A DNA stretch of 63,724 nt from a virus (taxonomy: Duplodnaviria; Caudoviricetes): IMG/VR virus record IMGVR_UViG_3300044630_000814, positions 1 through 63,724 of that record; one strand, 5' to 3'. Made by a program: the position numbers and the translations under genes. The notes beneath the pieces were generated by a model. The model was not told where the DNA came from. It did no database searches and saw only the letters and a program-made list of their open reading frames with translations. Shown one piece after another: positions 17,255 to 46,480 of the stretch (the first letter of the stretch is position 1; each line of letters opens with the position of its first letter).

Positions 17255-20200
17255 ATGCCTACATACCGGATCAAAGCCCCTGACGGTAACACCTACCGGA
17301 TAGAGGGGCCACCCAACGCGTCTCAAGCCGATGTAATCGCTGCAGTAATGAGGCAGAACCCATCGGCGGGTGTAGCTAAAGTTACGCATCAAATAAAGGC
17401 ACCTGATGGCAATACGTATGCGATCGAAGGGCCTAAGAATGCTACCCAGAAGGAAGTTGCTGCGGCTGTAATTCGGCAGAAGCCGACGGCTGGCAAACCA
17501 CCAGCACCGGTCAAGCCCACACCTAAAGCAGCGGTTGAAATCGGCAAACGCACAAAAGAACTCGATGAGAGTGCCGCGAGCCTTAATCGGATGATTGCTG
17601 AAACCCAACGCTTATCTAAGCTACCCGGCGCGACAGCAAGCATGCGGGAAAAAGCTAACGTAGCCATAGAAGAATACCGCAAAACCCTTGCGAACATCGC
17701 AAATGAAAAAGGGTACATGCAGCGCACGGGTACGCTTGTGCCCGAACGGTCCTTTGGTGAGATTGCCACAGATACACTTAAAGGACTTGGTGCCGGTGCG
17801 CTCCGTACAGTTGCGGGTATACCGAGCCTGTTGGGTGCTGTAGGTATAGAAAGTCCGGGTAAAGCATCCGAGCAAGCAGCCGAACGATTTATTCAGCGTA
17901 ACCTTGCACCTGATGAGAGCGATGCAGCCCAATTTGGTACGTTTGCGCAGCAGGGTCGGCGACTTTCTGAAGTAGCAGGTAGCGTCCTACCTGCGTTTGC
18001 CACTCGTGGCGCGTCTCGTGCAGGTATGGCTGTTGCTGGTCCACGCGCTGTTCCGATACTTACAAGGACAGAACAAGCAGCACAACTTGCATTAGGTGCG
18101 GGTCCCGGTGCTCAGCAACAGCGTCAGGCAATCGAGCAATACGAAGCTGAGACAGGGAAGGTCGTTAACCCTCTCGTACGTGCGCTTGCGCAGGCTGGCG
18201 GTGCAGCCATTGGGGCTACAGAAGTTCTCACCTTAGACGCTATGATGGCGCGGGTACCTTCCAAGTTGCGTGGGTCTATGACTTCAAAACTTGCAGGTCT
18301 TGTGGAGCGTATAGAAGCCGGTGGCATATCGCCGAAAGCTGCGGCAGCAGAAGTACGCACCCTTATGGCTGACATCCAGAAAACTGGCCGAGGCCGTGTG
18401 GGTGTCGCTATGCTGGAAGAAGGTACGCAGGAAGGTACCGCTCAGTTCGCACAGAATGTCCTCGAGAAAACGGCGTACAACTCCGAAAAGGATGTAACCG
18501 AAGGGGTCGCAGAGAACTTTATCTACGGTGCGGTTGTTGGTGGCGGCGTACGTGGGCTTACTGAGCTAGTTACAAAAGTAACAGGCGGCGTAGAAACCGC
18601 TAATAAAATTAAGTCGGACGCAAAGCTTATCGCTGCAACTATGCGGTTGCAAGAGAACCCGAACGACGATGCCGCTTTCGATACCATCGTTGAACGTATG
18701 GTGGAAAGCTACGGAATTACCCCAGAGAAAGCAGCGCTATACGCCCAACAACAACTCGGACGCGCACGCGAAGAAGGAGATACGGATGTCCCCGATGCTG
18801 ATACCGGAGTGGATGACTTCGGAGGAACTGACGCAGGCACTGCTTCTGATATCGGAACCACTCCGTCCATATCCGGTGCTACAGACGTTGGAGAGACTGT
18901 CGGAGGAGGACTGGAGCGGGCTGTTTCTGGCGTATCAACTACTGATGTTGGCGAGGGAGCGGGAGTCAGTTCACTAGACGAAACTAAGCAAATCCTTGCC
19001 GATAAGAAAGTCAAACTGACTGAACGCGTTAATGTAGCTAGGCAGCTACTGAACGACACGATACTCAACAACCCCCTCGTCAGTGTGAATGACGTTGACC
19101 AGAAGCAGTTCGATGCGGCTAAGAAGCAGCTTGCGAATGGTAAATACAATGGTGACCCCGTGGCTGCGCTGGAAGCGGTTACAGGCAAGAAGTTTGCTGC
19201 TCCTCTCGACGTCAACACGACTGTTGAGGATGTGAACACACAAGAAATCCAAGGGGGGCTCGACGCTGTCACCCAAGGAATTGCGGAAAATCAAGCGCAA
19301 ATTAAGTCCTTCATCCAAGGGATTGAGGAAAATCAAGCGAAACTTGCGGCTGCACCTGAAGTCACTACACCCCCATTGGATGTGCAAGCTACGGCTCCTG
19401 TTAAGACGGCGATTGAATCGGTCACTACCCCTGCTCCTGACGCTAGCCCTATCCCATCCTTGGCTCAAGCAAGTGCACAACAGTTGGGTATTACACCTAC
19501 GGCTGCGCCTGAAGCTGCGCCCGAAATGGCTGCGCCTGAAGTGGCCCCGCTTAGCCGTGAAGAGAAACCGGTTTATGACCCCGCAGACTACACCCCACAG
19601 GAAATCTACGACAACCTAACACGTTTTGGGTACAAAGAAGCCGAGCGCCGTGGTTATGTGTTTAACACCGCTGAAAACGGTATGTTTGGTGAAGGTGTAC
19701 GGGAAGCAAAGAACCCCGACATCCAGCCTCTAACTGACGAACAAGTCCTTTCCCTTGAGCGGGGTAGCCCCGAAGTTCTTGCCGCTTACAAAGAAGGCCA
19801 GCAGTGGGGGAAAGAACAGGTTGCAGCCGTACAAGCTGCGCCAGTAGCCGAAGAAGCCGCACTTGAAGCTGCGCCTGTACAGGAACCTGTACAAGGTTAT
19901 GTTGATACGCGGAAGCAAGAACTAGCAGCACAAGAGGCTGCGGATGTTGAAGCCGAGGCTAACCTACGGCAAGAGATTGAAGCGCGTAAGCAGCAAGAAG
20001 AAGCTGCGCCAGTAGCCGAAGCAGCCGCACTTGAAGCTGCGCCAGTAGCCGAAGAGGTTGCACCTGAGGTAGTTACTGCACCTATCGAGGAAGCAGCACC
20101 AGAAGTCGATCCTTATGCTGGCGTACTTGCGGACATTGAGGCAGCGCTAGCCGACGAGGCGATTGATGCAAGGACACATAAGCTGCTTACCTCGGCAGTA

Positions 20201-23200
20201 GAACGCCGCCTGCCGTTAGAAAAAATTGAAGCTCAACTTGATGTAGCCCGCACGCGAAGTGCTGAGCGAGCCATGGGTGCTTCCAATAGTGAACGTGCAA
20301 CTCCGAGCGAAAGGCTTCAAGGTCTTATATACCGGATGCAGGATGCGTGGAAGGTGCTTACTGGTAAGCCTATACTGGCCAATGCTAGGTTAGCAGATTT
20401 GCTGCGCGACCCAGACATTCTCAGCAAAATGAATCCTGCGCAGCGGGGGCTTGCTGCTGCCTTGGCGGATGTCATAGATGACGACGTTGACGTCTATATC
20501 GGCAATCTTAACTTTAGCCCCCAAGAAGCTTTTACCTTAGGAACTGCCACTGTTTATGACGGCGCAGCCCCCGACGTTCGTTTGCGCGGGGTGTCAACCG
20601 CAGCAAACATTGTAACCCTCCTTCACGAGGCAGTTCACATTGCTTTGATAGCTAAGTTTGGCTCGGACTTTAAGCGTTTAACAGACCTTGGCCCTGACGC
20701 TGACCCAGAAATGCTTGCATTACGCGATGAAGTCTATAACTTGATTGATGCATACAACACCATGTTTGAGGTGGAGAGTTCGGCGGACCTACTGCTCAAG
20801 GCATCCCCGTACGGCATGAAAAACCTAGACGAGTTCATCGCTGAAGGACTGACCCAACCGAGCTTCCAAAAATTCTTGGAGAAGGGTAACCTGTGGACGC
20901 GTTTCGTAGCGTTAGTGCGGAAGCTGCTTAAGCTGCAACCTAAATTCCAGCCTCAACTGGATAACGTACTAAAAGCTGGCGCTAAACTAATTGCCGCGTC
21001 CAAGAACATCGACCGTATGGAGTATGTATCGGGCACTTTTGAGCAGCGGAAAAAGGCTGCTCCTAAAGGTAAAGGTAGTGCACAAGAGAGGGTCGCTACC
21101 GGCGAAGCAGAGATTAATCGTGGTGTGGCCCAAGCACAAATGGCAGCGGACATGCTGGAGTTCACCGATGGTCTCAGTGCGGCTATCGACGGGCGCGACG
21201 GCAGCTTCTTCCTCCCCTCGATAAAAGAAGGATGGGCTTCCTTCAATGACGCTACCCGTGAATATATACTGCCCGCACTGACCAGCTCGTTCATTATTAA
21301 CGATATTGATAAGGGCCGGTTACCGCCATTGCGGCGTATGGAGACGATTGAAGCTAACATCCGTGGGGCGCAAAACAGGATGCGTGCCCAATTTGGGAAG
21401 CTAGACCGGCGTTTTACGAAGTTCGTCAACCGTACAGGGCAGCGTGTCCTTGCAACGACTATGCATGCGGCACGCATCAACGAGTTCTCCCCCTCGGACT
21501 TCTCGTCGTTAGATAATGCGCTCCAGAACGACCCTATTATGGTTTGGTACAATGACGCAATAAAGGACCCAACCGTTAGCAAGGGGCAGGTCGCTGCGTT
21601 TAAAGGCAAGAAGACCATCCGCGAGAAACAAATTAAGGCGGTCTGGAAGCTTTGGGAAGAGCTTGGTAAGCAAAAGAACGGCCACGACATTTATGTGCGC
21701 GTCCGCGATTTTTACGCTGATATGTATACTATCATGCGTACCGAGCAGAACAGCTTCATCAAGAAACTACCTATCGACGATGCGGCTAAAGAAGAGCTTC
21801 TTGTAGCGGTGGACCCCGATACTTTTGCTGAAGGGGAGGCAGACCCGAATGACCCGCATGCTGGTATCCCAGACAGCGTACGTCCCAAGGAGTACTTCCC
21901 TTTCCGCCGTTACGGTAAATATTGGCTGACGGTTAAAGGCGATGGCATAAAAACAGGCCGCGAGCGCCACCACTTCGAAACCGCTTTTGGGCGGAATGCC
22001 TTCCTGCGTAAGCGCGCCAAGGAGTTGGGTGTAGACCCACAAAATGAAAACGTTTTCGAGAAGGGTAATACCCTAGAGGACTTCCAGAATAACTTGGTCG
22101 AGAGCAGCTTGATGCTCAGCAATATATTCTCAGTGATTGACAAGGCCGTTATTTCTGGGAACTACGACACCACTAAATACGCTACACCTGCTGAAGCACT
22201 AGAAGCCATGAAGAAAGAGCTTAGGGATAAGCTCTACCAGACGTACCTCATGACACTACCAGAGCGCAGCCTTCGTAGGCAGTTTATCCATGCCGAGCGC
22301 GTGACAGGTTTCAGCAGCGATGTACTGCGTAATTTCAGGTCCAGTTCTGCACAATACGCGGTGCAAATCCCGAAGCTGCAGTATGGGTCCGACGTTAACA
22401 GCGTAATCAGCGAAGGCTATGATGCCCTTGAAGGCATGCCTGTGGACGAAAAAGCCGCCGCAAGAACTTACGTGGATGAAATGGTCCAACGGCTGCGCGG
22501 AGCCATCAACCCAGAAGCACCGAATGCATTCGTGGCGGGGGTTAGCCGGTTTGCTTTCTACGAAGTCATGTCCAGCATTGCGTCTGCTGCATCGCAGATG
22601 TTGTCCGTCCCGATCTCGGTTATGCCTAAACTCAATGCGGACTACGGGTACACCGCAGCTGCCGCTGCTTTTATGCGTTACTCCTTCATCCCGTACAGCT
22701 TCGGTCTTCCTGAGCGTGACGCAGATGGCATGTTTTCACAAGTTATGCCTTCGATAGGGACGTCAGTAGCGGTAAAAAGTAACCCTATCCGTGCCCGTGC
22801 GTTTAAGGAATTTACCGACCGCGATTTGTTCGACTCTTCTGCGGCTAGCTCCCTATTCCTCAACAACGAGATGGCGCATACATACTCTTCGTACAACATT
22901 CCGGCGGAAGTGCTCGGGCTGGCGTTTAAGGCTATGCGTCTTCCCTTCACTATGTTTGACGTGGCTTCTCGTGAGATGAGCGCCATGATGTTCTTCGACC
23001 TTGACTACGGCAAAAACCGTAAGGACGGCATGGAGCCAGAGGAAGCATATAACGCTGCTATCCAGAACACTGTTAATGGCTTGAACGAAACTATCGGTAG
23101 CCACAACTTGTTCGAGCGTCCGCGTTACATGGTCGGGCAAATCCGCCAACTGCTTTTCCTGTTCCGCATGTACGCTGTGAACCGCACCATGTTTGGTTTG

Positions 23201-24202
23201 CGTATGGGTATACAAGTCATGCGGGGTGAGAATGCCACTGGCCGTACTCGCGCTGCTGCCATACACGAACTAGGTGGCAACTTGGCAATGGTGGCAGTCC
23301 TTGGTGGTATAGCAGGTGCACCGCTGTTAGACGTGGTGTGCGGGGCTATTGATATGATCCTGCCGTCGCTCATGGATGACGAGGAAGAAGAAGAGTTCCG
23401 GCGTCAGCACCCATATTCATACAACAACTCCAAGCACCGGTTCCTGTACGAGTGGCTGCCGGAGAATTTTGGTAACCCTACACTGCCCGGTCTAGATGGT
23501 AAGCAGCATGCGCTGGCAGATGTCCTGCGTAACGGTATACCGTCCGAGCTTATCGGCGTTAACTTCGCATCTCGTGTTAGCTGGAACGGCATGTGGATAC
23601 GCGACAGCATCCCCGGAGAAAACTGGAGCGAGTCAATCGTAAACTGGCTTGAGACCAACCTGTCTCCCGGTGCGGCTATCAGTATCGAGTTCATCAAAGC
23701 GCTTGAGGATGTGTACAAGGGTGACGTTATGCGTGGTCTTGAGAAGATAGTCCCCGGCACATTCCGTGGTTCTATAACTGCCGAGCGGCTGTCAACTCAG
23801 GGGGCAGAAACCCGCAAGGGTGGGAAAATGTTCGCAAAGGACGAAATTACAGCTTTGCAGCTTAACTTCCAGCGTATGGGTTGGGCACCGAACGAGGTAT
23901 CGGATTGGCAGCGTGAGCGTATGGGCGCCCTCTCTATGATTAACGCCGTTACTGGCGAACGCACTGACCTTATGGCTAAGCTAAATAAAGCTAAGTCCGA
24001 CCCCGAAGGTTCCAGCGAGACAGTTGCTGAAGTCGAAGCCGATATCCGTGAGTTCAACAGGTTGCACCCAATACCAGAACTGCAGATTGAAGAGGAAGAC
24101 ATAGCCAAGTCTCGTAGCCGCTACCTACAGAGCGAACTGGATAGCTATCGTGGTATGCAACTTACTGCGGAGCAGAAGGCTCTTATGCTAAAGTACAAAT
24201 AA
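17255..24202 (+). CDS. Giant (2315 aa) ejected polyvalent-type protein with zincin metallopeptidase-like domain
   Basis: Duplicated N-terminal IKAPDGNTYxIEGP module, acidic EAAP linker, LLHEAVH...DEFIAE zincin motif, helical C-terminal region; last late gene. Confidence 0.75.
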   Translation: MPTYRIKAPDGNTYRIEGPPNASQADVIAAVMRQNPSAGVAKVTHQIKAPDGNTYAIEGPKNATQKEVAAAVIRQKPTAGKPPAPVKPTPKAAVEIGKRTKELDESAASLNRMIAETQRLSKLPGATASMREKANVAIEEYRKTLANIANEKGYMQRTGTLVPERSFGEIATDTLKGLGAGALRTVAGIPSLLGAVGIESPGKASEQAAERFIQRNLAPDESDAAQFGTFAQQGRRLSEVAGSVLPAFATRGASRAGMAVAGPRAVPILTRTEQAAQLALGAGPGAQQQRQAIEQYEAETGKVVNPLVRALAQAGGAAIGATEVLTLDAMMARVPSKLRGSMTSKLAGLVERIEAGGISPKAAAAEVRTLMADIQKTGRGRVGVAMLEEGTQEGTAQFAQNVLEKTAYNSEKDVTEGVAENFIYGAVVGGGVRGLTELVTKVTGGVETANKIKSDAKLIAATMRLQENPNDDAAFDTIVERMVESYGITPEKAALYAQQQLGRAREEGDTDVPDADTGVDDFGGTDAGTASDIGTTPSISGATDVGETVGGGLERAVSGVSTTDVGEGAGVSSLDETKQILADKKVKLTERVNVARQLLNDTILNNPLVSVNDVDQKQFDAAKKQLANGKYNGDPVAALEAVTGKKFAAPLDVNTTVEDVNTQEIQGGLDAVTQGIAENQAQIKSFIQGIEENQAKLAAAPEVTTPPLDVQATAPVKTAIESVTTPAPDASPIPSLAQASAQQLGITPTAAPEAAPEMAAPEVAPLSREEKPVYDPADYTPQEIYDNLTRFGYKEAERRGYVFNTAENGMFGEGVREAKNPDIQPLTDEQVLSLERGSPEVLAAYKEGQQWGKEQVAAVQAAPVAEEAALEAAPVQEPVQGYVDTRKQELAAQEAADVEAEANLRQEIEARKQQEEAAPVAEAAALEAAPVAEEVAPEVVTAPIEEAAPEVDPYAGVLADIEAALADEAIDARTHKLLTSAVERRLPLEKIEAQLDVARTRSAERAMGASNSERATPSERLQGLIYRMQDAWKVLTGKPILANARLADLLRDPDILSKMNPAQRGLAAALADVIDDDVDVYIGNLNFSPQEAFTLGTATVYDGAAPDVRLRGVSTAANIVTLLHEAVHIALIAKFGSDFKRLTDLGPDADPEMLALRDEVYNLIDAYNTMFEVESSADLLLKASPYGMKNLDEFIAEGLTQPSFQKFLEKGNLWTRFVALVRKLLKLQPKFQPQLDNVLKAGAKLIAASKNIDRMEYVSGTFEQRKKAAPKGKGSAQERVATGEAEINRGVAQAQMAADMLEFTDGLSAAIDGRDGSFFLPSIKEGWASFNDATREYILPALTSSFIINDIDKGRLPPLRRMETIEANIRGAQNRMRAQFGKLDRRFTKFVNRTGQRVLATTMHAARINEFSPSDFSSLDNALQNDPIMVWYNDAIKDPTVSKGQVAAFKGKKTIREKQIKAVWKLWEELGKQKNGHDIYVRVRDFYADMYTIMRTEQNSFIKKLPIDDAAKEELLVAVDPDTFAEGEADPNDPHAGIPDSVRPKEYFPFRRYGKYWLTVKGDGIKTGRERHHFETAFGRNAFLRKRAKELGVDPQNENVFEKGNTLEDFQNNLVESSLMLSNIFSVIDKAVISGNYDTTKYATPAEALEAMKKELRDKLYQTYLMTLPERSLRRQFIHAERVTGFSSDVLRNFRSSSAQYAVQIPKLQYGSDVNSVISEGYDALEGMPVDEKAAARTYVDEMVQRLRGAINPEAPNAFVAGVSRFAFYEVMSSIASAASQMLSVPISVMPKLNADYGYTAAAAAFMRYSFIPYSFGLPERDADGMFSQVMPSIGTSVAVKSNPIRARAFKEFTDRDLFDSSAASSLFLNNEMAHTYSSYNIPAEVLGLAFKAMRLPFTMFDVASREMSAMMFFDLDYGKNRKDGMEPEEAYNAAIQNTVNGLNETIGSHNLFERPRYMVGQIRQLLFLFRMYAVNRTMFGLRMGIQVMRGENATGRTRAAAIHELGGNLAMVAVLGGIAGAPLLDVVCGAIDMILPSLMDDEEEEEFRRQHPYSYNNSKHRFLYEWLPENFGNPTLPGLDGKQHALADVLRNGIPSELIGVNFASRVSWNGMWIRDSIPGENWSESIVNWLETNLSPGAAISIEFIKALEDVYKGDVMRGLEKIVPGTFRGSITAERLSTQGAETRKGGKMFAKDEITALQLNFQRMGWAPNEVSDWQRERMGALSMINAVTGERTDLMAKLNKAKSDPEGSSETVAEVEADIREFNRLHPIPELQIEEEDIAKSRSRYLQSELDSYRGMQLTAEQKALMLKYK

Positions 24203-24231
24203 AAACCCCCGGCTGAGTGAGCAACCGGGGG
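24201..24231 (-). terminator. Intrinsic terminator at the convergence of the late and replication arms
   Basis: CCCCCGG/CCGGGGG stem followed by a U-run on the minus strand. Confidence 0.75.
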
Positions 24232-24277
24232 CTTAGTGTGCCTAACGGAAGGAGCAAACTTCCGGGGGTGTGTATAC

Positions 24278-24472
24278 TCACATTCTCCAGACACGTAAAC
24301 CCCTAATACCATCTTCGATCACCGCTTTTATCAATACCTTGAGTTTCAAGCGTTTGGTAACCACTAGGACTTGTGCCTTAGCGCGTTTGGGGTCTAGGCA
24401 CGGGAAGAATATAGATGTCCCGCGCTTGAACTTTCTCCAGTTAACCTCGTAACTAACTCCCTCCAGCTTCAT
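24278..24472 (-). CDS. Small basic hypothetical protein (putative DNA-binding)
   Basis: 64 aa, W..F..G.SIFFPC...GLRVWR; overlaps the primase stop. Confidence 0.65.
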   Translation of the reverse strand: MKLEGVSYEVNWRKFKRGTSIFFPCLDPKRAKAQVLVVTKRLKLKVLIKAVIEDGIRGLRVWRM

Positions 24473-27299
24473 CCTTAATCTCCACGGGCAATAAGCCTTC
24501 TACGTCCATGAAGCCATTGACCGACGTATCGAAGAACAGGGCTTGTACGCCGAGGGTGTTAATCCTCATGCCCTTCGACATCCGCTTAGTGTCGCTCTTG
24601 ATGTACACGCCGTCGTCCTTCAGCCTACGCAGGGTTTCCTTGTAGTTAATCTGGAACTGTACGCAGTACTCCTTGAACTTTTTAGCTGCGAAGAACAACA
24701 TCTTAGTGTCAGGCTCGTAGCGGATGATGAGTTCGCCCTTAGGCTCCATCTTCGGCTTAACCTCCATGTTAGAGCGGCTGTCCACTTGGTCGTCTACGAC
24801 GAGCGTGTTCTGGATGTGGCGGTTCACAAAGTCACCGATGACTTGACTCGTGTCCGTCGCTGGTGGCTCAATCTCTTGCCGCAGTGTGGTAATCATGTTG
24901 CATGCCCACTGGTATATATCGTTCATATTCCAGTCGATTAGGCCCAGCATCTTGGCGATAAAACCTGCCGTGATGTTAGCGGCGACACCAGCCGACCAGA
25001 AACGTTCGCGCTGTGTTAGACGTAGCTGCAGGTCAAGCCGAGACTGGATGTTCTGGCAGGCTTCAAACACCTCTTCCATATTATCTAGCACGTATGCCAT
25101 GAAGATAGGTCCGGCGTGGCCGTAGTTATCCATCAACTGCTGGTCGAACATCTGCTTACCTTCTTCGGTGCTGATGGCATCCGTCTGGCTAATGCGATAC
25201 TCAATTAGGCGCATCATCTCCCCGTCAGGGCTATCCTTGCGGATAGACAGCTTTTCATAGAATGATGCGTTCGACGTACATATCGAGATAGTCTGCCATG
25301 TGGTCTCGTTGATGCGCAGTTCATTACCTCCTGCGGTCATACGTTCTTTGCCCTTACCTTGGGACATCCCGTAAACCAGTTCGGAGAACTCATCAGCGTT
25401 CATGTTGGTGATTTCGTCCACGCAGTATGGCAGGTTGCACATGATAGCCAACCACTGCATCTTCGCGTTCAACGTGTCTGACTTCTTAGCAATAAGCTCA
25501 GTGGGGTGCCCATATACGCTCATGGCCATACGAGCGATGGTTGTCTTACCCGTGCCGGACTCAGGGCTTACGAGGTTGATGGCAGCACCTGACTGCTTGA
25601 GAAACTTCAAGAGCGGCGCACCGAAGGCGCTAAGCGCGGCAAAGGCATGGCCTTCTAAGCCGGGACGCCCGTATAGTGCCCACACTTCTTTCCATTTATC
25701 CAACGAACCCACCGGCCCCATATACCGTGCTAGCGGTGCCGTGACTGCCGAAGGCGGGCTATAGAGCATACCATCCCGAGTGACTTCTTGGTCGCCGATG
25801 ACAAAGCGGCTGTTGTTGTCTGCCCATCCAAATTGATTACGCATGATTTCTAACTTTCCTGTGTTCTGTGTAGCGTTCACCGACAGCATCACATAATCCA
25901 TGAACATGTCGAACTTCTTGGGGTGAATGGCTACGCTGTATGTTGATATAGCTTTGCGAAGCAGGTCTTTCGAGGACACCTCGTTAAGGGGTACCGAAAA
26001 ATCTTCTACTCCGTCGAGCGGCAGGTGGCGGCGGAAAACTAGGACTTCTCCCATCTTCCTGTCCTTCATACGCTTCACGATGTATATGTCGTTGTGGTAT
26101 ACGAGGATAGGTTCCGCTTCGTCGCCGTCGCCCTTTGGTGGCTTGCGCCATATGCCCCCACCTTCCCCACGGAAGAACGGGAACGGATACTCCGGTATAT
26201 AGAATGTTTCTGACTTAGGTCCTGTGGGTGTATCTATAACCTCTTCGACTTTGTTGCTCTTGGCTTCGTTTATCTTGCGGCCAAGATACTTAGGGCCGAG
26301 GATTTCCCCCTTCCACTTGCATCCTTGGCATAGGGTCGGGTTCTTCCCCTCGAACTTAGCGCAACTTGTTGCCCCCTTGATGGTGGCTACCTTGTTCTCC
26401 AGCGTAGCAGGGTCATACTCTGGGTGTCCTTCGGACATCATATGCACCGCTTCAGCCGCATCTTCGCACATGGCGGCGACCGATATGGCGTGAAACCAGT
26501 CGTAATAGTCTATGGTAGCACGGTTGTTATACGCATGGAGAAGCTGGGCGCATCCCTCACCCTTCTCGCTACGACGCATAATCTTGCCAAAGTTGAACTG
26601 AACGCTTTTGTTCATTGCCTTACCGAGTTCGGTAGGCTCCCACTTGGGCTGCGCTGCTAGGTGCTTCACACCTAACGTCTGTATAACCCAGTCAAAATTA
26701 ACAGGCTTACCGACGAACATTACTTCGACAGGCTTTGGGGGGTCATCTTTAAAGTTCAAAGTGCCGGGTATGCGCAGTATGCGCGCCGCTTCAAACACTG
26801 CTGCGTCCACGTAAAAGTTGTGGGTGTAGCATAAGTCACGGAGGCGGAGGGCAACAGGCTCCCACTCTTCGCGGGTTACGTCGCGGTCAAGCGTCCAGTA
26901 TGCGTGTATACCGCGCCCTGAGTTAACAAGGGTAGGCTTAGGTAGCCCTGTGAGTTCACAGAAATCCCGTAGCGCGGCAAGACCAGTCTCTTGGTCTATA
27001 TATCCGTCAGGACGGCCAGTTTTTTCGCTGACTACGGCTTTGCTTTCACCGCAGTCGATATCTAGCCATAGGGCACGGAGCGCCTTTACGTTGTCCTTGG
27101 TACGCCCTGCGTCCGTTTTATATTTAGCAACACCGAAGAAAACATTGCGTTGTTGAGAGAGGTACAGAGCCGCAACCCTATCTGCTTCCTCACGCGTCTC
27201 AACCAGCGTCTGTCTTACATCGTCTTTGCCTTTGTTACCGAAGATCGCAAACCACCCTTCAGATGGCTGTACTGTCGATAGGAGGTCAAACTCTTCCAT
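24453..27299 (-). CDS. Primase-helicase (AEP/RepB-like primase + DUF927 + helicase)
   Basis: WLDIDC, NSGRGIHAYW and RILRIPGT primase motifs; QFGW (DUF927); Walker A ESGTGKTT; Walker B CVDEIT. Confidence 0.85.
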   Translation of the reverse strand: MEEFDLLSTVQPSEGWFAIFGNKGKDDVRQTLVETREEADRVAALYLSQQRNVFFGVAKYKTDAGRTKDNVKALRALWLDIDCGESKAVVSEKTGRPDGYIDQETGLAALRDFCELTGLPKPTLVNSGRGIHAYWTLDRDVTREEWEPVALRLRDLCYTHNFYVDAAVFEAARILRIPGTLNFKDDPPKPVEVMFVGKPVNFDWVIQTLGVKHLAAQPKWEPTELGKAMNKSVQFNFGKIMRRSEKGEGCAQLLHAYNNRATIDYYDWFHAISVAAMCEDAAEAVHMMSEGHPEYDPATLENKVATIKGATSCAKFEGKNPTLCQGCKWKGEILGPKYLGRKINEAKSNKVEEVIDTPTGPKSETFYIPEYPFPFFRGEGGGIWRKPPKGDGDEAEPILVYHNDIYIVKRMKDRKMGEVLVFRRHLPLDGVEDFSVPLNEVSSKDLLRKAISTYSVAIHPKKFDMFMDYVMLSVNATQNTGKLEIMRNQFGWADNNSRFVIGDQEVTRDGMLYSPPSAVTAPLARYMGPVGSLDKWKEVWALYGRPGLEGHAFAALSAFGAPLLKFLKQSGAAINLVSPESGTGKTTIARMAMSVYGHPTELIAKKSDTLNAKMQWLAIMCNLPYCVDEITNMNADEFSELVYGMSQGKGKERMTAGGNELRINETTWQTISICTSNASFYEKLSIRKDSPDGEMMRLIEYRISQTDAISTEEGKQMFDQQLMDNYGHAGPIFMAYVLDNMEEVFEACQNIQSRLDLQLRLTQRERFWSAGVAANITAGFIAKMLGLIDWNMNDIYQWACNMITTLRQEIEPPATDTSQVIGDFVNRHIQNTLVVDDQVDSRSNMEVKPKMEPKGELIIRYEPDTKMLFFAAKKFKEYCVQFQINYKETLRRLKDDGVYIKSDTKRMSKGMRINTLGVQALFFDTSVNGFMDVEGLLPVEIKDEAGGS

Positions 27300-27353
27300 T
27301 GGGCACACTCGTCACTGCAGGTTAACCTGCTTACTGCTTGCGGGGGGTGAAAC

Positions 27354-27587
27354 TTAAGTAGGGAAGTTGGTGATGTATTTACGGATAAGTCCGATAAACT
27401 CGCCCTGCGGGGCGCTAACCCCGCAGAACCAGTTGTATACAGACTGCCGTGTGGCACCAAGGTCATGTGCAACTTTGCTCACAGAAACTCCGTGCTCAAT
27501 GCACTTCCTCCCTAGCTGCACACCTAGATGCCCATCGTCAGCTTCGCTATTAGCTTCAATGGTTTTGAGGCTATAGCCGTAAGTCAT
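27354..27587 (-). CDS. Cro/XRE-like HTH protein
   Basis: VSKVAHDLGATRQSVYNWFCG helix-turn-helix. Confidence 0.75.
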   Translation of the reverse strand: MTYGYSLKTIEANSEADDGHLGVQLGRKCIEHGVSVSKVAHDLGATRQSVYNWFCGVSAPQGEFIGLIRKYITNFPT

Positions 27588-28501
27588 TAATCGTCCTCAT
27601 CACTACCCCAGTTGCTAATAACAGCAGCTAGGTTGGCTTTAGGTTCTGCGGCAGTGTCACTTTTAGCAGCAGGACGCTTCTTGGGTTCTTCAAGCTCTTC
27701 TTCGGGTTCGTCCGAGCGAGAGATTTGCGGTGCCGGTGCAGGGGCGGCTGGCTGCTTCTTTACGCCGTCTTGCTGGGCTACGGTTAGTTCGCACATACGC
27801 TTTGTACCTGCGTCCGCTTGTGCGCGTTTTACGAGTTCCTGCTCTTCGTCACTGGTACCACGCACGGGGGTAAAGAGAAGCTCCATGCTATCGGCGTTGA
27901 GGTCGTAGCTGATGTTGGTCACTACCGTATCCGGCGACTCGTGGTTAGCCAATAGGTAACGTACATAGCTTTCAAACGGATGCACATTACCTACACCCTT
28001 ACCGAAGAGCGACTTGGCTGGGACGTTGAACTGGTACACTTCTCCCGAAGGGTCGTTAGGCATGATAACTGCAATACGGCGCTGATAGCGGCATGCGCGA
28101 CCCTTACCGTTAGTACCCGAGCCGACTACGTTCTTAGGGCAACTTACGCAGTTGGGCGATTGTTTGTTACCCGCAGCGGCTTCTGGAATATCACCGTTGT
28201 TCGACCAGCAGTCTGGGAGCGTTGGCTTAGCGTTAGGGTCGTAAGCACCGGCATAAAACACGCGGCTAACCTTGGGTAGTGCATGGACGATGATAACATC
28301 AATGTCGCCACGCACCGCATCGCCAATCTGCTCACCATTTACGAGGCGCTTAAACGTCCCGTTGGTGTTGGTTTGGATGCGACGGTTAGTGCCGCCACCC
28401 GCACCACTGGCCAGAGTTTTGGCAAGTTCACTGAGTTCACGACGACCGACTGACGTTGAGACGGCACCGGCTTGCTTAAAAATAGAAACTTCATTGGACA
28501 T
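27587..28501 (-). CDS. Putative ssDNA-binding/annealing protein
   Basis: PDCWS...CxSCPKN..GS...GRAC motif and acidic C-terminus (WGSDEDD); replication-module context. Confidence 0.6.
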   Translation of the reverse strand: MSNEVSIFKQAGAVSTSVGRRELSELAKTLASGAGGGTNRRIQTNTNGTFKRLVNGEQIGDAVRGDIDVIIVHALPKVSRVFYAGAYDPNAKPTLPDCWSNNGDIPEAAAGNKQSPNCVSCPKNVVGSGTNGKGRACRYQRRIAVIMPNDPSGEVYQFNVPAKSLFGKGVGNVHPFESYVRYLLANHESPDTVVTNISYDLNADSMELLFTPVRGTSDEEQELVKRAQADAGTKRMCELTVAQQDGVKKQPAAPAPAPQISRSDEPEEELEEPKKRPAAKSDTAAEPKANLAAVISNWGSDEDD

Positions 28502-28513
28502 GGGTATATCCCC

Positions 28514-28921
28514 TTATTTAGATGTAGGTTTACGGACTTGTACGACGTACTTGGTATCGGCTTGTAGGCCAACAGGAAGAACCTCTGGGTTGTCTGCCAA
28601 GAACTGCTTCAAGTTACCATTATGGATGCGTTGTTCCAGCAGGAAGGGTGCATCATGTTCCTTGATGAACTGATACATCGCATCCCAGTCGCTCGTCCAG
28701 TACCGAGTGTTAACCCGACGAGAGACCGTCCCTGCGTTGGTGCGTAGGCTATCCACATCCAGCGTATTGCAGATGTCGAGTAAGCCTCCGGCAACAAGGT
28801 CTAATTGTTCTTTGAGGGAGGCAAGTTCTTCCTTGTGCTCTTCCTCTTTGTCACGGATGACATCCCGGATTCGCCGGTACGCCGTGACCATTTCTTCTAC
28901 TGACTGTTCGTTATCCATCAT
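28514..28921 (-). CDS. Conserved phage replication-module protein (coiled coil + SLRTxxGT...DWD)
   Basis: AAGGAGCAA RBS; family commonly found next to the SSB-like gene. Confidence 0.7.
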   Translation of the reverse strand: MMDNEQSVEEMVTAYRRIRDVIRDKEEEHKEELASLKEQLDLVAGGLLDICNTLDVDSLRTNAGTVSRRVNTRYWTSDWDAMYQFIKEHDAPFLLEQRIHNGNLKQFLADNPEVLPVGLQADTKYVVQVRKPTSK

Positions 28922-28934
28922 TTGCTCCTTCGTG

Positions 28935-29039
28935 TTGGGGTAGGCTCACCCGACTTAACCTGTCAATTCAGGTCCGCCTTTTTTATCAGCGCCGTCGCAA
29001 CAGGATTTCCCACCGCCGTGGGCACTGAGCCTACCCCAA
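28935..29039 (-). ncRNA. Structured 5'-leader / candidate ncRNA
   Basis: Perfect 14-bp closing inverted repeat (28935-28948 / 29026-29039) enclosing smaller hairpins; lies between a promoter and an RBS. Confidence 0.5.
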
Positions 29040-29043
29040 ACCC

Positions 29044-29071
29044 TACATACACTACCCTTTGACATTGTCAA
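29044..29071 (-). promoter_or_regulatory. Sigma70-type middle promoter with palindromic operator over -35
   Basis: TTGACA-16-TATGTA; palindrome TTGACA-T-TGTCAA at 29059-29071. Confidence 0.6.
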
Positions 29072-30618
29072 GCGGTACCGCTTACCATTTCTCGATATAG
29101 GTCGATAATTTTTTCGTGGTTCTCGATATTGCCACGGAGCATGCCGTACAGCCGCTCCTCCACCGGACTGCCCTTGATGTGCACAATGGTCATGGCGTTC
29201 TTCTGGCCGGGGCGATTGATACGGGCGTTTGCCTGTAGGTAGGTTTCCACGCTGGTTACTGGCGCATACCAGATGATTGTGTCTGCTGCCGTAAGCGTAA
29301 GCCCGTGCGATGCAGCCTGTGGCTGTATGAGTAGCACATGTGGGTCTTTCCGTGACTGGAAGTCCTCGACAATCTCACTGCGCTTGTTCATCGACACTTT
29401 CCCGTTGATGACTGCGCAACTAATCTTGTGCTTGGTTAGGTGGGCTTCCAGTAACTCGATGGTGTGCGTGAACGGTATGAATACCAGTACCTTGCTAGTG
29501 GCTTCTTCGATGACCTCCGTAACTACGTTCAAGCGGTTTGATACGTCGAACTCGATGACTTCTTTAGTGTCCGTGTAGACCGCACCACCGCTGATTTGCA
29601 GGAGCTTGTTTATCTTGGTCGCTGCGTTGACCGCGCTGACCTCCTCACCTGCTGCTTCGATGAGCATCTCGTTCTTAAGCTCGTTGTAGTACTTACGCTG
29701 CTGCGGGGTGAGAGGCGCTTCACGTTCAGTATACGTCACTTCCGGTAGGTCGAGGCAGTCCTTCTTCTCAAACCGGATGGCTGGCTGAAGCACACGATGC
29801 ACGATGCGATCAGCGCCGGGTCGAGGTGCCCACTTGAACTGGGTTACCTTTGCCATAACCGAGTCGCGGAACTGGCCGAAATATCTAGGGCAACCGTCAG
29901 GGTTAACCAGCTTGGCGAGACCAAACGCATCGACAGGGCTTTGTGCTGCTGGCGTACCAGTAAGCATCCATAGATATGGGTTAGTGTGTTGCAGGATTTG
30001 CGCGAGCACTTTCCAGCGGTTTGTCTGTGGGTTCTTATAGGCGTTCGCTTCGTCCACTACGATAAGGTCAAAACCACCAGCTATAATCTCGTCCTTGACG
30101 ACAGCTACGCCGTCGAAGTTGATGATGACGAACTCAGCGCCAGCGGCGATAATCTTCTTGCGTTGTTTGGCATCACCGTGGGCGACAGAACAAGACCGGT
30201 GCATAGCAAAGGTGAACATGTCGCGCTGCCATGCCGACTTCATAATCGAGAGAGGTCCAAGCACAAGGACGCGGTTAATCTTACCTAAGTTCAATAGGTA
30301 GTCCGCTGCCCAGATGACGCTTGCCGTCTTACCCGTACCCTGTTCGTTAAAGCAGAAGGCGCGTTTGTGTAGGGTAAGGAACGATGCGGTTGCCTCTTGG
30401 TGGGTGAATGGTTTGAACTTGCCGGTCCACGCGTAGTCGCGCTTGATAGGCGACGGAACATCGGCGAAGCCAAGGGATGCCAGCGTTTGGGCTTCTTTTA
30501 ACCCCCACTTGACGGCCACTTCGCCTGTTTCGATGATTACGCTTTTAGGTATGCTCTGGGTTATTAGGCTTGGGTCGTCAGTCGTTAGGACCAACGCACG
30601 GTTTTCAACGATTTGCAT
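29068..30618 (-). CDS. SNF2-family (SF2) helicase
   Basis: NEQGTGKT, VVDEA, LTGTP, HGLTLT and QANARINRPGQ motifs. Confidence 0.9.
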   Translation of the reverse strand: MQIVENRALVLTTDDPSLITQSIPKSVIIETGEVAVKWGLKEAQTLASLGFADVPSPIKRDYAWTGKFKPFTHQEATASFLTLHKRAFCFNEQGTGKTASVIWAADYLLNLGKINRVLVLGPLSIMKSAWQRDMFTFAMHRSCSVAHGDAKQRKKIIAAGAEFVIINFDGVAVVKDEIIAGGFDLIVVDEANAYKNPQTNRWKVLAQILQHTNPYLWMLTGTPAAQSPVDAFGLAKLVNPDGCPRYFGQFRDSVMAKVTQFKWAPRPGADRIVHRVLQPAIRFEKKDCLDLPEVTYTEREAPLTPQQRKYYNELKNEMLIEAAGEEVSAVNAATKINKLLQISGGAVYTDTKEVIEFDVSNRLNVVTEVIEEATSKVLVFIPFTHTIELLEAHLTKHKISCAVINGKVSMNKRSEIVEDFQSRKDPHVLLIQPQAASHGLTLTAADTIIWYAPVTSVETYLQANARINRPGQKNAMTIVHIKGSPVEERLYGMLRGNIENHEKIIDLYREMVSGTA

Positions 30619-32091: not shown

Positions 32092-32108
32092 TTCGTTTGC
32101 TCCTTCGG

Positions 32109-32303: not shown

Positions 32304-32314
32304 TACTTGCTCCT

Positions 32315-33073
32315 TCATTTAAGATTGCCACCGCTCTGCAGGATGTCACCACCAAACACATACGTGCCTACATGGTGCAGCTTGATGAACGGGTGGGCGT
32401 GTATTTTGCCACCGTGGTTGCGCCACAGTTCGCAAAAATGGTAATCTTCGCTTAGCAATGCGCCACTGGCGTCTATGCTGGTAGCGAAAAACTCGTGGGT
32501 CAAAGGCTTGGCATACTCGCCTGTCACTGGGTCTTGGAACGATGATACGCGGTAGGTGGGTACGTGGGGTATAAGGTGCTCGAATACCCCCCGCTTGATG
32601 AGCATGAAGCCTGTGCCACCATGGCGGACCTCAATGCAGCCTGTCTCGTCGCTGTGCACATCTTCACCCCCGACCATGTTGAACACAAATGCTCCGGCAT
32701 GGTTCTCAAGGTCGGACTTACCTGCAAGTGCTGCACGGTTGACGCTATCCCAGTTCACTTCCTTCTTAGGGTAGATACCGCATGCGATGTCCTTGTCGGC
32801 CAGCAACAAGTGCGCGATGGCCTCACTGTCGAAACCAATGTCGGCGTCAATGAACATCAGATAGTCGTGGTCACTCTCAAGGAACACCCGTGCCAGTTCG
32901 TTACGCGCCCGTGTGATAAGGCTCTCGTTCATAATCTGACACCATGCCACATTGACGCCGATTTCCCGCATCTTGTTCATGGTCATCAACAAGCCTTGCA
33001 CATAGTGCCCCGTGCACATGCCCCCATACATGGGTGTGGCAATCATTAGGCTTGGGCGTTTTTCTTCAGTCAT
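32315..33073 (-). CDS. GT-A-fold glycosyltransferase-like protein (middle copy)
   Basis: IATPMYGG, SLITRARN, FIDADI (DxD), GTGFMLI, SEDYHFC, HVG. Confidence 0.75.
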   Translation of the reverse strand: MTEEKRPSLMIATPMYGGMCTGHYVQGLLMTMNKMREIGVNVAWCQIMNESLITRARNELARVFLESDHDYLMFIDADIGFDSEAIAHLLLADKDIACGIYPKKEVNWDSVNRAALAGKSDLENHAGAFVFNMVGGEDVHSDETGCIEVRHGGTGFMLIKRGVFEHLIPHVPTYRVSSFQDPVTGEYAKPLTHEFFATSIDASGALLSEDYHFCELWRNHGGKIHAHPFIKLHHVGTYVFGGDILQSGGNLK

Positions 33074-34339: not shown

Positions 34340-34547
34340 GGTCTGCTCCTTCTCTCTGCTTACGTGCCTCGTCAATACGGGCTTGCTGTGCTGCTCGGCG
34401 GCCTTCCCTACCTACAACCTGACGCGCTCGCTCACGGGTAAGCCCATACTTTCGCCCCAAGGCTGCGAACGTGGTTCCTTGCTCCTCGCGTTCCCTATGG
34501 ATTGCTAGGTCTCGCTCGGCATTAACCCTAACTCCTTTAACCGCCAT
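34329..34547 (-). CDS. Sigma70 region-4-like HTH protein
   Basis: GTTFAALGRKYGLTRERARQVV resembles sigma region 4.2 (TLEEVG..F.VTRERIRQIE). Confidence 0.7.
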   Translation of the reverse strand: MAVKGVRVNAERDLAIHREREEQGTTFAALGRKYGLTRERARQVVGREGRRAAQQARIDEARKQREGADHVG

Positions 34548-36560: not shown

Positions 36561-36571
36561 TCGCTTGCTCC

Positions 36572-36649
36572 TTAAAATTTAATCTCATCGTCGGCCCAGT
36601 CGTAAATATCCCAGCCGAAATTATCGAACAGGAATTGGCGCAGGGTCAT
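36572..36649 (-). CDS. 25-aa acidic/aromatic peptide ending DDEIKF (not in ORF track)
   Basis: ATGA overlap with the upstream stop; MTLRQFLFDNFGWDIYDWADDEIKF exactly fills the gap to the next RBS. Confidence 0.55.
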   Translation of the reverse strand: MTLRQFLFDNFGWDIYDWADDEIKF

Positions 36650-38429: not shown

Positions 38430-38453
38430 GGTTTGCTCCTTGTTTGGCATCCC

Positions 38454-40455: not shown

Positions 40456-40517
40456 TAGTTTGCTCCTATTGTGTTATATGTAACTTAGTTAGGTCGTCCG
40501 GTTTGCTATCCGGTATT

Positions 40518-40763: not shown

Positions 40764-40773
40764 TATTTGCTCC

Positions 40774-41982
40774 TTATCCTTTGATATGCACAGTTTTGCC
40801 AACTGGTGACACGATACGGCCTGAGCTGTAGCGATGCTCGGAGATTACCCACATGATAGGCGCACCCCAGTCGTCACCCCAGTCACCGACATACCCGTCA
40901 GTCAGCTGGATGATGCACTCTGGCTTGATGTTTTGTTCCTTGAGGTAGTGCATCATACAGGTTGGGTCAGTGCCGCCACCGCCCACTGGCTTGGTAGAGC
41001 TAACAAGGTTAGACATGGTTGCCATGTCATAGACCTCATGCCCTGCCACCGCTCCGTCCCAATAGATGAGGTCTATCTTGTCGGGATGCACCTCCTCGAC
41101 GATAGCCTTGACCTCGGACAGGAACACGCTGAGTTCGTCCGCACCGATAGAGCCGCTTGTGTCTACGCCGATAGCGATATGCCCGACCTTCTCCCCTACT
41201 AGCGTAGGGAGATATACGTCTTGGCTTAGCATGCGCCTGTTGACCCTGCGCCATGATGACGCATCCTTGGCATTGCAAGTAGCGGACACAAACTCACGCA
41301 GTGCTTCGCGCCAGTCTATCTGTGGTTGGAGCATGTCACCCAGCTCGCGGTTGACACCTAGCCCGCCTTTGCCCGCAGCTTTCATAGATGCTATCTGGCC
41401 TTGGCGTAGGGCTTGGTCCACCTCGCGTTCTAGTTCCTTGCGCTCGTCGGCAGTCATTTCCTTGGCCCCGTCCCAGTCATGCTCGTCGAACCCTTCGCCG
41501 CCTTGACCACCATCAGGGTTATCCTTCTTCTCCTGCTTGAGTATGTCGAAGACTTGCTTGGTGTTCATGCCTTTGAAGCGGGTGTCGTAACACGCCATCG
41601 GTGTGCCATCCTCGCGGCGAACCATAGCGATGACTTGCTCGTTCGGGTCCATCTCCATAATCATAAGGTTGATGACATGGTCCATTGCGATGTTGGCTAG
41701 GTGAGGGTCCTCTGCTCGGAGCTTCTGCCACGTTGTCATGTGACGTAAGCCCTTGTGCATGTTCTCGTGTAGCACGACGAAGCCCAGTTGCTTCTCGTCT
41801 AACTTTGTTATGAACTCCAAGCCGTATATCTCGTCACGCCCGTTGGTGCATGCCGTTGGCACGTCCTCGGCTACGCTGGTCTTGCCGACCATCATGATGC
41901 CAGACCACAACGCAAACATGGGGTTGCGCATCAGGTTAATCTTGACTTTCTTGAGCTTGCGCTCAGCTTTCTGCATATCCAT
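40774..41982 (-). CDS. Metallopeptidase-like + VWA domain protein (DUF2201-like)
   Basis: TACTNG, LHENMH (HExxH), NIAMD..IN, VDTSGS MIDAS, GGGGTD, LTDGY. Confidence 0.85.
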   Translation of the reverse strand: MDMQKAERKLKKVKINLMRNPMFALWSGIMMVGKTSVAEDVPTACTNGRDEIYGLEFITKLDEKQLGFVVLHENMHKGLRHMTTWQKLRAEDPHLANIAMDHVINLMIMEMDPNEQVIAMVRREDGTPMACYDTRFKGMNTKQVFDILKQEKKDNPDGGQGGEGFDEHDWDGAKEMTADERKELEREVDQALRQGQIASMKAAGKGGLGVNRELGDMLQPQIDWREALREFVSATCNAKDASSWRRVNRRMLSQDVYLPTLVGEKVGHIAIGVDTSGSIGADELSVFLSEVKAIVEEVHPDKIDLIYWDGAVAGHEVYDMATMSNLVSSTKPVGGGGTDPTCMMHYLKEQNIKPECIIQLTDGYVGDWGDDWGAPIMWVISEHRYSSGRIVSPVGKTVHIKG

Positions 41983-42004
41983 TAGTTTGCTCCTTGTGTT
42001 GGTA

Positions 42005-44155: not shown

Positions 44156-44177
44156 GTGTTTGCTCCTTCTAACTTTG

Positions 44178-44594
44178 TTAGGCTTGTGATTGAAACGATA
44201 TCTCGGTCGAGCGGTTCACGCCGACCACTGCATCTGCGTTGGTGCTCATCCTTATCTCGGTGTCTTGGTCTTCCTCGCCAAGGCGCACAAACTCCCATGC
44301 TATGTTGAACGCCGTGGGGTCGCCCGTCACTGCTTGCTCGTCTAGCAGTCGGTCGATGGCCTCGAACACTCTCTCCACCGCTTGCGGATGCTCGTAGTGC
44401 TCATACCACTTCACGTCGTTGTAATAGACGGAGATGCCTCGGCTCTCTGGGTCGTAGGTAATCCTCGCATCCCATTCGTTCGTGGCTTCCTTGACGGGGT
44501 AGTTCTCGTCGAACCATAGCTTGAGCAGCGGGTATGATGTCTCGCTGTCAACGGGTGCGTAGATAACTACGTCTACTTCTGAGCGATAGCCCAT
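44178..44594 (-). CDS. Acidic hypothetical early protein (MGYRS family)
   Basis: MGYRSEV...VKWY...FVRLGEE; GGAGG RBS. Confidence 0.75.
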   Translation of the reverse strand: MGYRSEVDVVIYAPVDSETSYPLLKLWFDENYPVKEATNEWDARITYDPESRGISVYYNDVKWYEHYEHPQAVERVFEAIDRLLDEQAVTGDPTAFNIAWEFVRLGEEDQDTEIRMSTNADAVVGVNRSTEISFQSQA

Positions 44595-44971: not shown

Positions 44972-45141
44972 TAGTCTTGCTCCTTCAGTTTCTCGTATAT
45001 CTGCGCCATGCTCATGCCTTTGAGTTCTTCTGGCACTTCGCCGCGCATCTCTGCTTCGATAGAGGCAATCGCCTCGTGGTAGCGGTCGAGTCCGACCCAA
45101 CCTGTCGGGTCATCGACGTTTAGTTTTGCTTTCTTTCCCAT
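44971..45141 (-). CDS. Hypothetical protein (56 aa, not in ORF track)
   Basis: MGKKAKLNVDDPTGWVGLDRYHE...; stop/start overlaps with neighbours. Confidence 0.55.
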   Translation of the reverse strand: MGKKAKLNVDDPTGWVGLDRYHEAIASIEAEMRGEVPEELKGMSMAQIYEKLKEQD

Positions 45142-45907: not shown

Positions 45908-45977
45908 AGTTTGCTCCTTTTCTAACCTTGTTAGGGCTGGTTGGGTGAACCGACCTGACCTTTTGTTTTTTCTTTTA

Positions 45978-46049: not shown

Positions 46050-46480
46050 GCGTAAGAAAATGGGATGACGGGAAACTGCGCTTTGTAAGGAAAATCGGGG
46101 TAATGTAAGAAAAGTGGCGAGGAAAAACTTACAAAAGAAAATGGCAGAAGCCTGCGGGTTTCAGTAAGGAAGTTGGGTGTAATGTAAGAAAGTTAGTTAA
46201 AAAAATAATAATAAAGGGCTGGAACGATTTTGCTTACGGATATTTCGGTGCATCTGCGAGAGAGCGTCTTTTCGGAGCGATGCCCCAAAAAAACCTTACA
46301 ACCCTTACGACCCTTACAAAGCGCAGAAATGCGTGGGTCATTTTCTTACAATAGGGCTAACTTTTCTTACATTACACAACTTTCCTTACAATACCCTGTG
46401 CGCTCGTCAGTCCTGTTACTATCATAGGAGCACCTAACTAAGTTAGGGCTGGTAATGTAAGTTTTCTGCATTGTAAGTTT
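46050..46480. repeat. Iteron-like TGTAAG/CTTACA repeat field (candidate replication origin)
   Basis: 11 exact hexamers in about 400 bp, arranged as inverted arms around an AT-rich core; non-coding. Confidence 0.55.

Follow-up and report, generated by a model that had tools for sequence, protein, structure and literature searches.

Why does a tailed phage carry, at the very end of its early gene block, a small hairpin that is complementary to the ribosome-binding sites (RBSs) of many genes in that same block? We addressed this question in a window of 63,724 bases (63.7 kb), which is the whole stretch of DNA analyzed and a complete record of a tailed phage. One gene block occupies the + strand, from 47.1 to 63.7 kb and from 1 to 24.2 kb, and encodes the structural, late products (terminase, portal, major head, virion and tail-fibre proteins, and a giant 2315-aa protein). 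The other occupies the minus strand from 47.2 to 24.3 kb, and its products include an HNH endonuclease, an SNF2 helicase and a DUF927 primase. The early/replication block ends at the anti-RBS locus, and the two blocks run towards each other there. For gene starts we used a crude list of 88 ORFs (42 minus, 46 +), in which some starts, such as those of the giant ORF and of the primase, are wrong.

The earlier note on this DNA had described an extended RBS in front of 13 minus-strand genes, and this description held. All five exact copies of the 11-mer AAGGAGCAAAC that it listed (32095, 38431, 41985, 44158 and 45909) were recovered on the minus strand as RBSs, and its eight near-exact copies were located within 1 to 2 nt of where it had placed them. 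We counted 13 minus-strand sites between 28.9 and 47.2 kb with 9 to 12 contiguous nucleotides complementary to the hairpin, each followed by an ATG 0 to 5 nt later; the motif contains a canonical GGAG at a fixed RBS spacing from this ATG. The complementarity spans 12 nt at 45908-45919 (63-aa gene), 44158-44169 (314-aa gene), 41984-41995 (402-aa HNH endonuclease gene) and 32095-32106 (163-aa gene), and 11 nt at 40457-40467 (280-aa gene), 38431-38441 (101-aa endonuclease-like gene) and 28921-28931 (135-aa gene). It spans 10 nt at 47155-47164 (163-aa gene), 44977-44986, 40766-40775 (81-aa gene) and 32307-32316 (64-aa gene), and 9 nt at 36565-36573 (69-aa gene) and 34344-34352 (133-aa gene), all of these sites being on the minus strand. 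A 14th RBS, TAGGAGCAGAC at 33944, is complementary over 7 nt.

A sixth exact copy of AAGGAGCAAAC is inverted, on the + strand at 24249, and corresponds to the loop and 3' arm of the hairpin at 24246-24264. There, as had been claimed, a minus-strand RNA would contain the exact complement of the RBS, reading CGGAAG-UUUGCUC-CUUCCG. Six exact copies compare with 0.04 expected, and none of 100 shuffled sequences reached six. With two mismatches allowed, 34 copies were found versus 18.5 expected, a count that alone barely exceeds chance.

The tag was also confirmed to be missing ahead of late genes, as no + strand (late, structural) gene is preceded by the motif. When the seed GUUUGCUCCUUCC was paired with gene start regions, binding at or below -15 kcal/mol was predicted for 15/42 minus-strand and 0/46 + strand starts (Mann-Whitney p 2e-4), and this strand contrast makes the tag specific to the early/middle block. 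Seeds with shuffled flanks that kept CTCC reached this energy at a mean of 2.4 start regions, and 1.5% of them reached 15. A genome-wide duplex scan with the whole seed was dominated by its C-run and hence uninformative. Two late genes on the + strand, at 55181 and 62518, have GGAGCTATA(A)T ahead of their ATG, with an extension after GGAGC that differs from the early tag.

The early block contains a second repeated element. Hairpins of the form CTAAC-NNN-GTTAG (5-bp stem, 3-nt loop) are scattered between 34140 and 47275 (for example at 45922-45934, 44169-44181 and 46434-46446), with 22 copies at up to one mismatch versus 2.0 expected, nearly all inside the early block and several immediately 5' of a tagged RBS. 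Whole records of relatives contain 9, 12, 21, 1 and 0 exact copies, so these hairpins are independent of the RBS tag. Their shape is reminiscent of the hairpin promoters of the N4 virion RNA polymerase. The giant 2315-aa ORF (17255-24202, + strand) had no Pfam match; residues 1057-1229 match a "virion RNA polymerase" PHROG (E 4e-9), and its C-terminal part matches a DarB-like antirestriction PHROG (E 3e-32). The PHROG matches and the hairpin repeats together suggest an injected RNA polymerase.

The anti-RBS hairpin starts a compact minus-strand arrangement, located 14 nt past the last ORF of the block. Its 5' arm GGAAG (24263-24259), loop UUUGCUC (24258-24252) and 3' arm CUUCC (24251-24247) are closed by the pair C24264-G24246. 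An 11-nt spacer, UUAGGCACACU (24235-24245), follows, which is kept only in the closest relatives and in a group with 75% primase identity. Next comes an intrinsic terminator hairpin (24203-24234) with a 13-pair GC-rich stem, whose pairs co-vary among relatives, and a U-run at 24205-24201. This terminator, the only one of the block, overlaps the stop codon (24200-24202) in which the giant + strand ORF ends. The earlier note had seen UUGCUC again in the terminator loop, which is correct for the window and yet not a feature of the family, since TTGCTC occurs in the terminators of just 8/108 distinct elements. On the + strand, positions 24246-24264 read CGGAAGGAGCAAACTTCCG. We also considered whether the inverted motif could be an RBS for a + strand gene, and rejected this, as the motif was followed by an ORF of 30 aa or longer in 0/83 elements.

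Upstream, a -10-like box, TATACA (24271-24276, minus strand), begins one base past the stop codon of a 64-aa ORF (24278-24472, minus strand), and a -35-like box, TTTACG (24294-24299), lies within the Gly-Leu-Arg codons of this ORF. Across 107 family elements, a TAnnnT box begins 0 to 3 nt past the ORF stop in 93, with the consensus T.95 A1.0 T.67 A.75 C.5 T.68. A TTTACG or TTGCGN box lies 16 to 18 nt further upstream, inside conserved codons; TTTACG itself is found in 48/107 elements and a 17-nt spacer in 66/107. The combined promoter score was 8.0, compared with 6.4 at random control positions of the same loci. Because the -35-like box is inside conserved codons, it is also under protein constraint; the -10-like box is non-coding, so that its conservation is not explicable in this way. 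Since the hairpin is located between the conserved TATACA and an intrinsic terminator, we predict a minus-strand RNA of about 64 nt (24201-24265), composed of the hairpin, the spacer, the terminator hairpin and the U-run, whose 5' end we place 6 to 8 nt past the -10-like box. The earlier note had proposed an RNA derived from the 3' untranslated region (3' UTR). The element uses the terminator of the block, and transcription from its own sigma-70-like promoter is likelier than an origin solely as a 3'-UTR fragment.

The neighboring ORF is itself strongly conserved. It encodes exactly 64 aa in 91/92 distinct sequences (69 aa in the other), with Y8, W12, G18, F22, P24, G58, R60 and W62 invariant in a 52-sequence alignment. 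The protein is confidently modeled as an alpha/beta fold (pLDDT 90.8), for which Foldseek gave no match below E 0.38 and VIA-align a best Z of 5.1; it had no clear Pfam match and no tblastn match in phage records. A search of the whole window with the Rfam 15 covariance models gave nothing at the gathering threshold, the best sub-threshold matches reaching 15.6 to 18.5 bits against thresholds of 39 to 70 (suhB/mmgR, E 0.8; P15, E 0.4). Among sequencing runs, one metatranscriptome (X1; word share 0.05) and three runs of unknown kind were found, all in the form of contigs. Compared with positions 22500-29500, the X1 contigs (depth 3-8) are short and cover parts of the primase and of 28.3-29.0 kb but nothing across 24138-24371, which at this depth is uninformative either way on the existence of the RNA.

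No match to positions 23000-26000 was obtained by blastn in phage records. The best tblastn match of the primase in these records, in Pseudomonas phage Rollin, has 28% identity, and downstream of its primase Rollin has two different ORFs and no comparable element. Relatives of the primase among genome_contigs lie on phage-sized contigs in metagenome-assembled genome (MAG) bins of Caulobacteraceae, Actinomycetota, Sericytochromatia and others. These phyla are inconsistent, so that no host can be named from them, and an alphaproteobacterial host is unsupported. Several such loci (L215, L217 and others) are on contigs of 61 to 64 kb, with primases 48 to 52% identical to that of the window, and the MAGs that contain them belong to unrelated phyla; binning has probably swept up phage genomes here.

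Conservation of the anti-RBS loop, which the earlier note had proposed to check, was evident among relatives, where the hairpin is kept between a -10-like box and a terminator with compensatory changes in its stem. A search with the primase as a single protein gave 21 loci, from 97% down to 44% identity, and the hairpin is still present at 44%, where the flanks are unalignable. A pattern scan gave at least 118 stretches, and all those with a terminator behind them lie downstream of the same primase and small-ORF module. As the pattern scan is biased in its ascertainment, we ran a second search with primase alignments only, which found 592 relatives; we took the best 80 loci (up to 7 kb of flank), 70 of which had enough downstream sequence. 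A terminator-like element follows the primase module in 67/70 of these, the anti-Shine-Dalgarno motif CUCC is present in 56/70, GCUCC in 42/70, and GCUCC within a hairpin with 5 or more base pairs in 38/70; at the remaining loci there is either some other CU-rich stretch or nothing.

In an alignment of 67 hairpins, a set that is partly ascertained by the search pattern, the GCUCC core does not vary. Of 72 distinct family hairpins, 66 form stems of 5 bp or more in one common register, whereas in slid registers 0 to 4 of the 72 can pair, except at +1 (24/72). There are five stem types with both arms changed (GGAAG/CUUCC, GAGAG/CUCUC, GCAAG/CUUGC, GAGGG/CCCUC and GAGG/CCUC). We counted stems by script because MAFFT and RNAalifold misaligned the variable loops and the 5' hairpin; on the MAFFT alignments, RNAalifold recovered the terminator and, in group B, also the invariant hairpin.

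A branch with UUA loops (L153, L158, L088, L098, L116 and others) has a second architecture, with three hairpins in the putative RNA. The additional 5' hairpin varies in sequence among phages with its pairing kept, and precedes the anti-RBS hairpin; between the two, UUUCUCCUC forms a second, single-stranded anti-Shine-Dalgarno stretch. Terminators seem to be exchanged as cassettes. Four relatives (L001, L004, L003 and L005) with primases 95 to 97% identical to that of the window have an identical anti-RBS hairpin and terminators differing from the one at 24203-24234, and the terminator of the window reappears in distant members with compensatory stem changes (10/108 elements).

If the loop pairs with the RBSs, then the bases that follow GGAGC should track the loop. 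We predicted these three bases from the loop of each locus and compared them with the RBS-like sites that lie upstream on that strand (1 to 4 per locus, partly from the same orthologous genes). The loops UUU, UUG, UUA and UUC occur with GGAGCAAA, GGAGCAAC, GGAGCUAA and GGAGCGAA, respectively. Where AAA was predicted (34 loci), it was found in 55/189 RBSs, with no TAA and two AAC; where AAC was predicted (9 loci), AAC was found in 10/46 and AAA in none. TAA occurred in 22/79 RBSs of the 24 loci for which it was predicted, with GGAGCAAA likewise common in these UUA-loop phages (13/79), and GAA in 2/11 RBSs of 3 loci. At the 25 loci without GCUCC, GGAGC was present in only 18/120 RBSs. Where GCUCC is all that the putative RNA has, 44% of RBSs show a C after GGAG, versus 14 to 16% elsewhere. 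Two classes did not follow the prediction: CUGCUC loops (6 loci; AGC in 0/34 RBSs), whose whole records contain GGAGCAAG(C), a match only if a 1-nt bulge is allowed, and AUAGCUC loops (3 loci; TAT in 0/13). The co-variation suggested as a check was thus largely positive, for the AAA, AAC, TAA and GAA classes, and failed for AGC and TAT.

Whole records behaved similarly. The motif GGAGCAAAC occurs nine times in one of them (G008), on one strand only; GGAGCAACC was found in 3/7 in another (G010), and GGAGCTAA four, two and three times in three UUA-loop records (G001, G002 and G005). The record without GCUCC (G009) has no RBS consensus. On a FastTree phylogeny of 98 primases, the AAC class appears at three or more separate places, with AAC RBSs each time, and AAC and AAA are split perfectly (8 and 24 rows; 3/3 independent pairs as predicted). 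TAA RBSs were present in 18/18 TAA rows and 0/24 AAA rows, and GAA RBSs in 2/2 GAA rows and 0/22 TAA rows. Informative independent pairs in the predicted direction numbered 3/3, about 1.5/2 and 1/1; with 1 to 5 pairs per test, these are too few for any sign test to reach significance (p 0.25 to 1). The presence of GCUCC and the share of GGAGC gave a weak test, with 1.9 pairs changing in the same way, 0.6 in the opposite way and 2.5 without difference. The bases 5' of GGAG are not tied to the 3' arm: opposite CUCUC, the predicted AGA was found once and GAA five times. Specific pairing seems limited to the loop and one or two stem bases.

Based on these sequence comparisons, we moderately favor the reading that the locus encodes a trans-acting small RNA (sRNA) directed against the RBS, which would damp the approximately 13 tagged early and middle genes. 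The sigma-70-like promoter (TTTACG, 17 nt, TATACA), in and just past the last codons of the 64-aa ORF, would drive transcription of the minus strand from the foot of GGAAG-UUUGCUC-CUUCC to the intrinsic terminator, giving an RNA of about 64 nt. Early transcripts that read through would share the same 3' end, and the RNA might also be released from them. The loop and the first bases of the 3' arm (5'-GUUUGCUCCUU) could pair with (A)AGGAGCAAAC, which consists of the Shine-Dalgarno sequence plus a private spacer tag and precedes about 13 early/middle genes and no late gene. Pairing would be nucleated by the loop at GAGCAAA and then extend across the Shine-Dalgarno sequence; since half of the anti-Shine-Dalgarno sequence is locked in the stem, the hairpin would have to open. 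The loops UUUG, UUAG and UUCG would fit YUNR, the U-turn motif of antisense recognition loops. As such pairing would cover the Shine-Dalgarno sequence, a block of ribosome binding and a joint turn-down of the tagged class would be its most likely outcome. The RNA may serve as a timer of early shut-off, for dosage control or for exclusion of kin.

A rather unlikely variant of this reading is that the RNA pairs with the tagged RBSs and has a main role other than self shut-off, either marking or protecting early mRNAs or providing an RNA "immunity" directed at the early genes of superinfecting kin, with the loop/tag classes as specificity groups. The same pairing evidence, namely the 13 complementary RBSs and the co-variation of loop and tag, applies to it, and by sequence it is indistinguishable from self-regulation. 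Protection or activation is hard to square with pairing right over the Shine-Dalgarno sequence. The division of relatives into the loop/tag classes AAA, AAC, TAA and GAA is what selection for private specificities would predict, and there is a precedent in the c4 RNA of P1/P7, a small trans-acting phage RNA that, according to PMC12197685, blocks the ant RBS and underlies heteroimmunity. Against this variant, no lysogeny genes turned up among the proteins scanned, in a scan with other aims.

Could the hairpin instead be a mere 3'-end structure of the early operon, a stabilizer or auxiliary terminator that matches the RBSs through its C/U-rich composition? It does immediately precede an intrinsic terminator, many relatives have merely CU-rich stretches here, and no Rfam family was matched. 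We nevertheless consider this unlikely. Composition does not account for an exact 11-mer so rarely expected, for loop classes that follow the RBS extension, for the scarcity of GGAGC among RBSs of loci without GCUCC, or for the conserved non-coding -10-like box.

It is quite unlikely that the + strand is the functional one, with late read-through transcripts carrying GGAAG-GAGCAAA-CUUCC as an RBS mimic that titrates ribosomes or, as the earlier note had suggested, a protein that reads the tag. Co-variation with the tag would be equally expected, and the two strands fold equally well (z-scores of -3.25 and -3.26, which do not discriminate between them). Read-through past the stop codon of the giant gene is also plausible, the terminator hairpin having its U-run on the minus strand only. 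However, in nearly all relatives it is the minus strand that has a promoter-like box and this U-run. The hairpin stems include ten G-U pairs, among them several U-G pairs that close the loop, and these would become A-C mismatches on the + strand; no candidate for a tag-reading protein was identified. The + strand decoy and the pure 3'-end structure both fit the data less well than an sRNA. Finally, the motif is very unlikely to be a duplex DNA site for a phage protein, placed before early genes with one inverted copy at the end of the block: co-variation among all copies and restriction to one genome block would be expected for such a site as well, but it would explain neither the canonical GGAG at a fixed RBS spacing from the ATG, nor the position of the inverted copy between a -10-like box and a terminator, nor compensatory stem changes that keep a hairpin needless for duplex DNA.

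An sRNA of the proposed kind would resemble c4 of P1/P7, as described in PMC12197685, in acting in trans on mRNA of the phage itself, in having its complementary bases in loops, in pairing around the RBS so that translation is blocked, and in a specificity that differs between related phages. Unlike c4, which acts on one operon, ant, in temperate phages, the putative RNA is complementary to a tag shared by about 13 genes, and no sign of lysogeny was seen among the proteins scanned here; the two RNAs have no similarity in sequence or in Rfam. In PMC12197685, sar of P22 is described as blocking initiation of ant translation. The predicted RNA resembles sar and OOP of lambda in being a short phage antisense RNA with a terminator at its end. 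Both sar and OOP are cis-antisense RNAs opposite a single target, whereas the putative RNA lies 4 to 23 kb from its targets, with 9 to 12 nt of pairing. These targets are on the same strand, and opposite the locus there is nothing but the stop codon of the giant ORF.

In T4, RegA is a translational repressor and RegB an endoribonuclease that cuts GGAG. The proposed system would likewise switch off many early mRNAs jointly through their ribosome-binding sites, but its effector would be an RNA rather than a protein, with a co-evolving spacer tag as the discriminator. Among bacterial sRNAs, RsaE/RoxS, CcsR and AbcR have C/U-rich anti-Shine-Dalgarno loops, and icaR contains an anti-Shine-Dalgarno element in its 3' UTR. 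The predicted RNA shares with RsaE/RoxS, CcsR and AbcR a pyrimidine seed in a hairpin, several targets in the Shine-Dalgarno region and a 3' terminator hairpin, and the weak Rfam matches (suhB/mmgR and P15) are of the same general shape. Seeds of the RsaE/RoxS type match generic Shine-Dalgarno sequences, whereas here the bases that follow GGAG on its 3' side would confer the specificity, toward genes of the phage itself. In the literature searched, we found no phage sRNA directed at an RBS tag shared by early genes, and literature matches for GGAGCAAAC were apparently unrelated, among the matches listed. If the proposal holds, then what sets it apart from these systems is that, across a large clade of uncultured phages, one RNA would reach a dozen targets by way of a tag that lies next to the Shine-Dalgarno sequence and co-evolves with it.

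To our knowledge, the examples of lytic phages shutting off their early genes on schedule mostly involve proteins, and the phage antisense RNAs described so far control single genes. An anti-RBS sRNA would represent a simple and portable means of post-transcriptional control over a class of genes, and the stretch that separates the Shine-Dalgarno sequence from the start codon would carry regulatory information that gene annotation ignores. Hundreds of environmental relatives, with their AAA, AAC, TAA and GAA classes, supply natural "compensatory mutants". A more far-reaching idea, which we regard as speculative and unlikely, is that a large clade of uncultured phages labels its early genes with the private tag beside the Shine-Dalgarno sequence, and that this tag and the phage sRNA that reads it diversify jointly, working as an internal timer and an RNA-based immunity code at once. 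An infected cell would then shut down early genes of same-class relatives that superinfect it, and this family would provide a lytic-phage counterpart of P1/P7 heteroimmunity that spans a whole class of genes.
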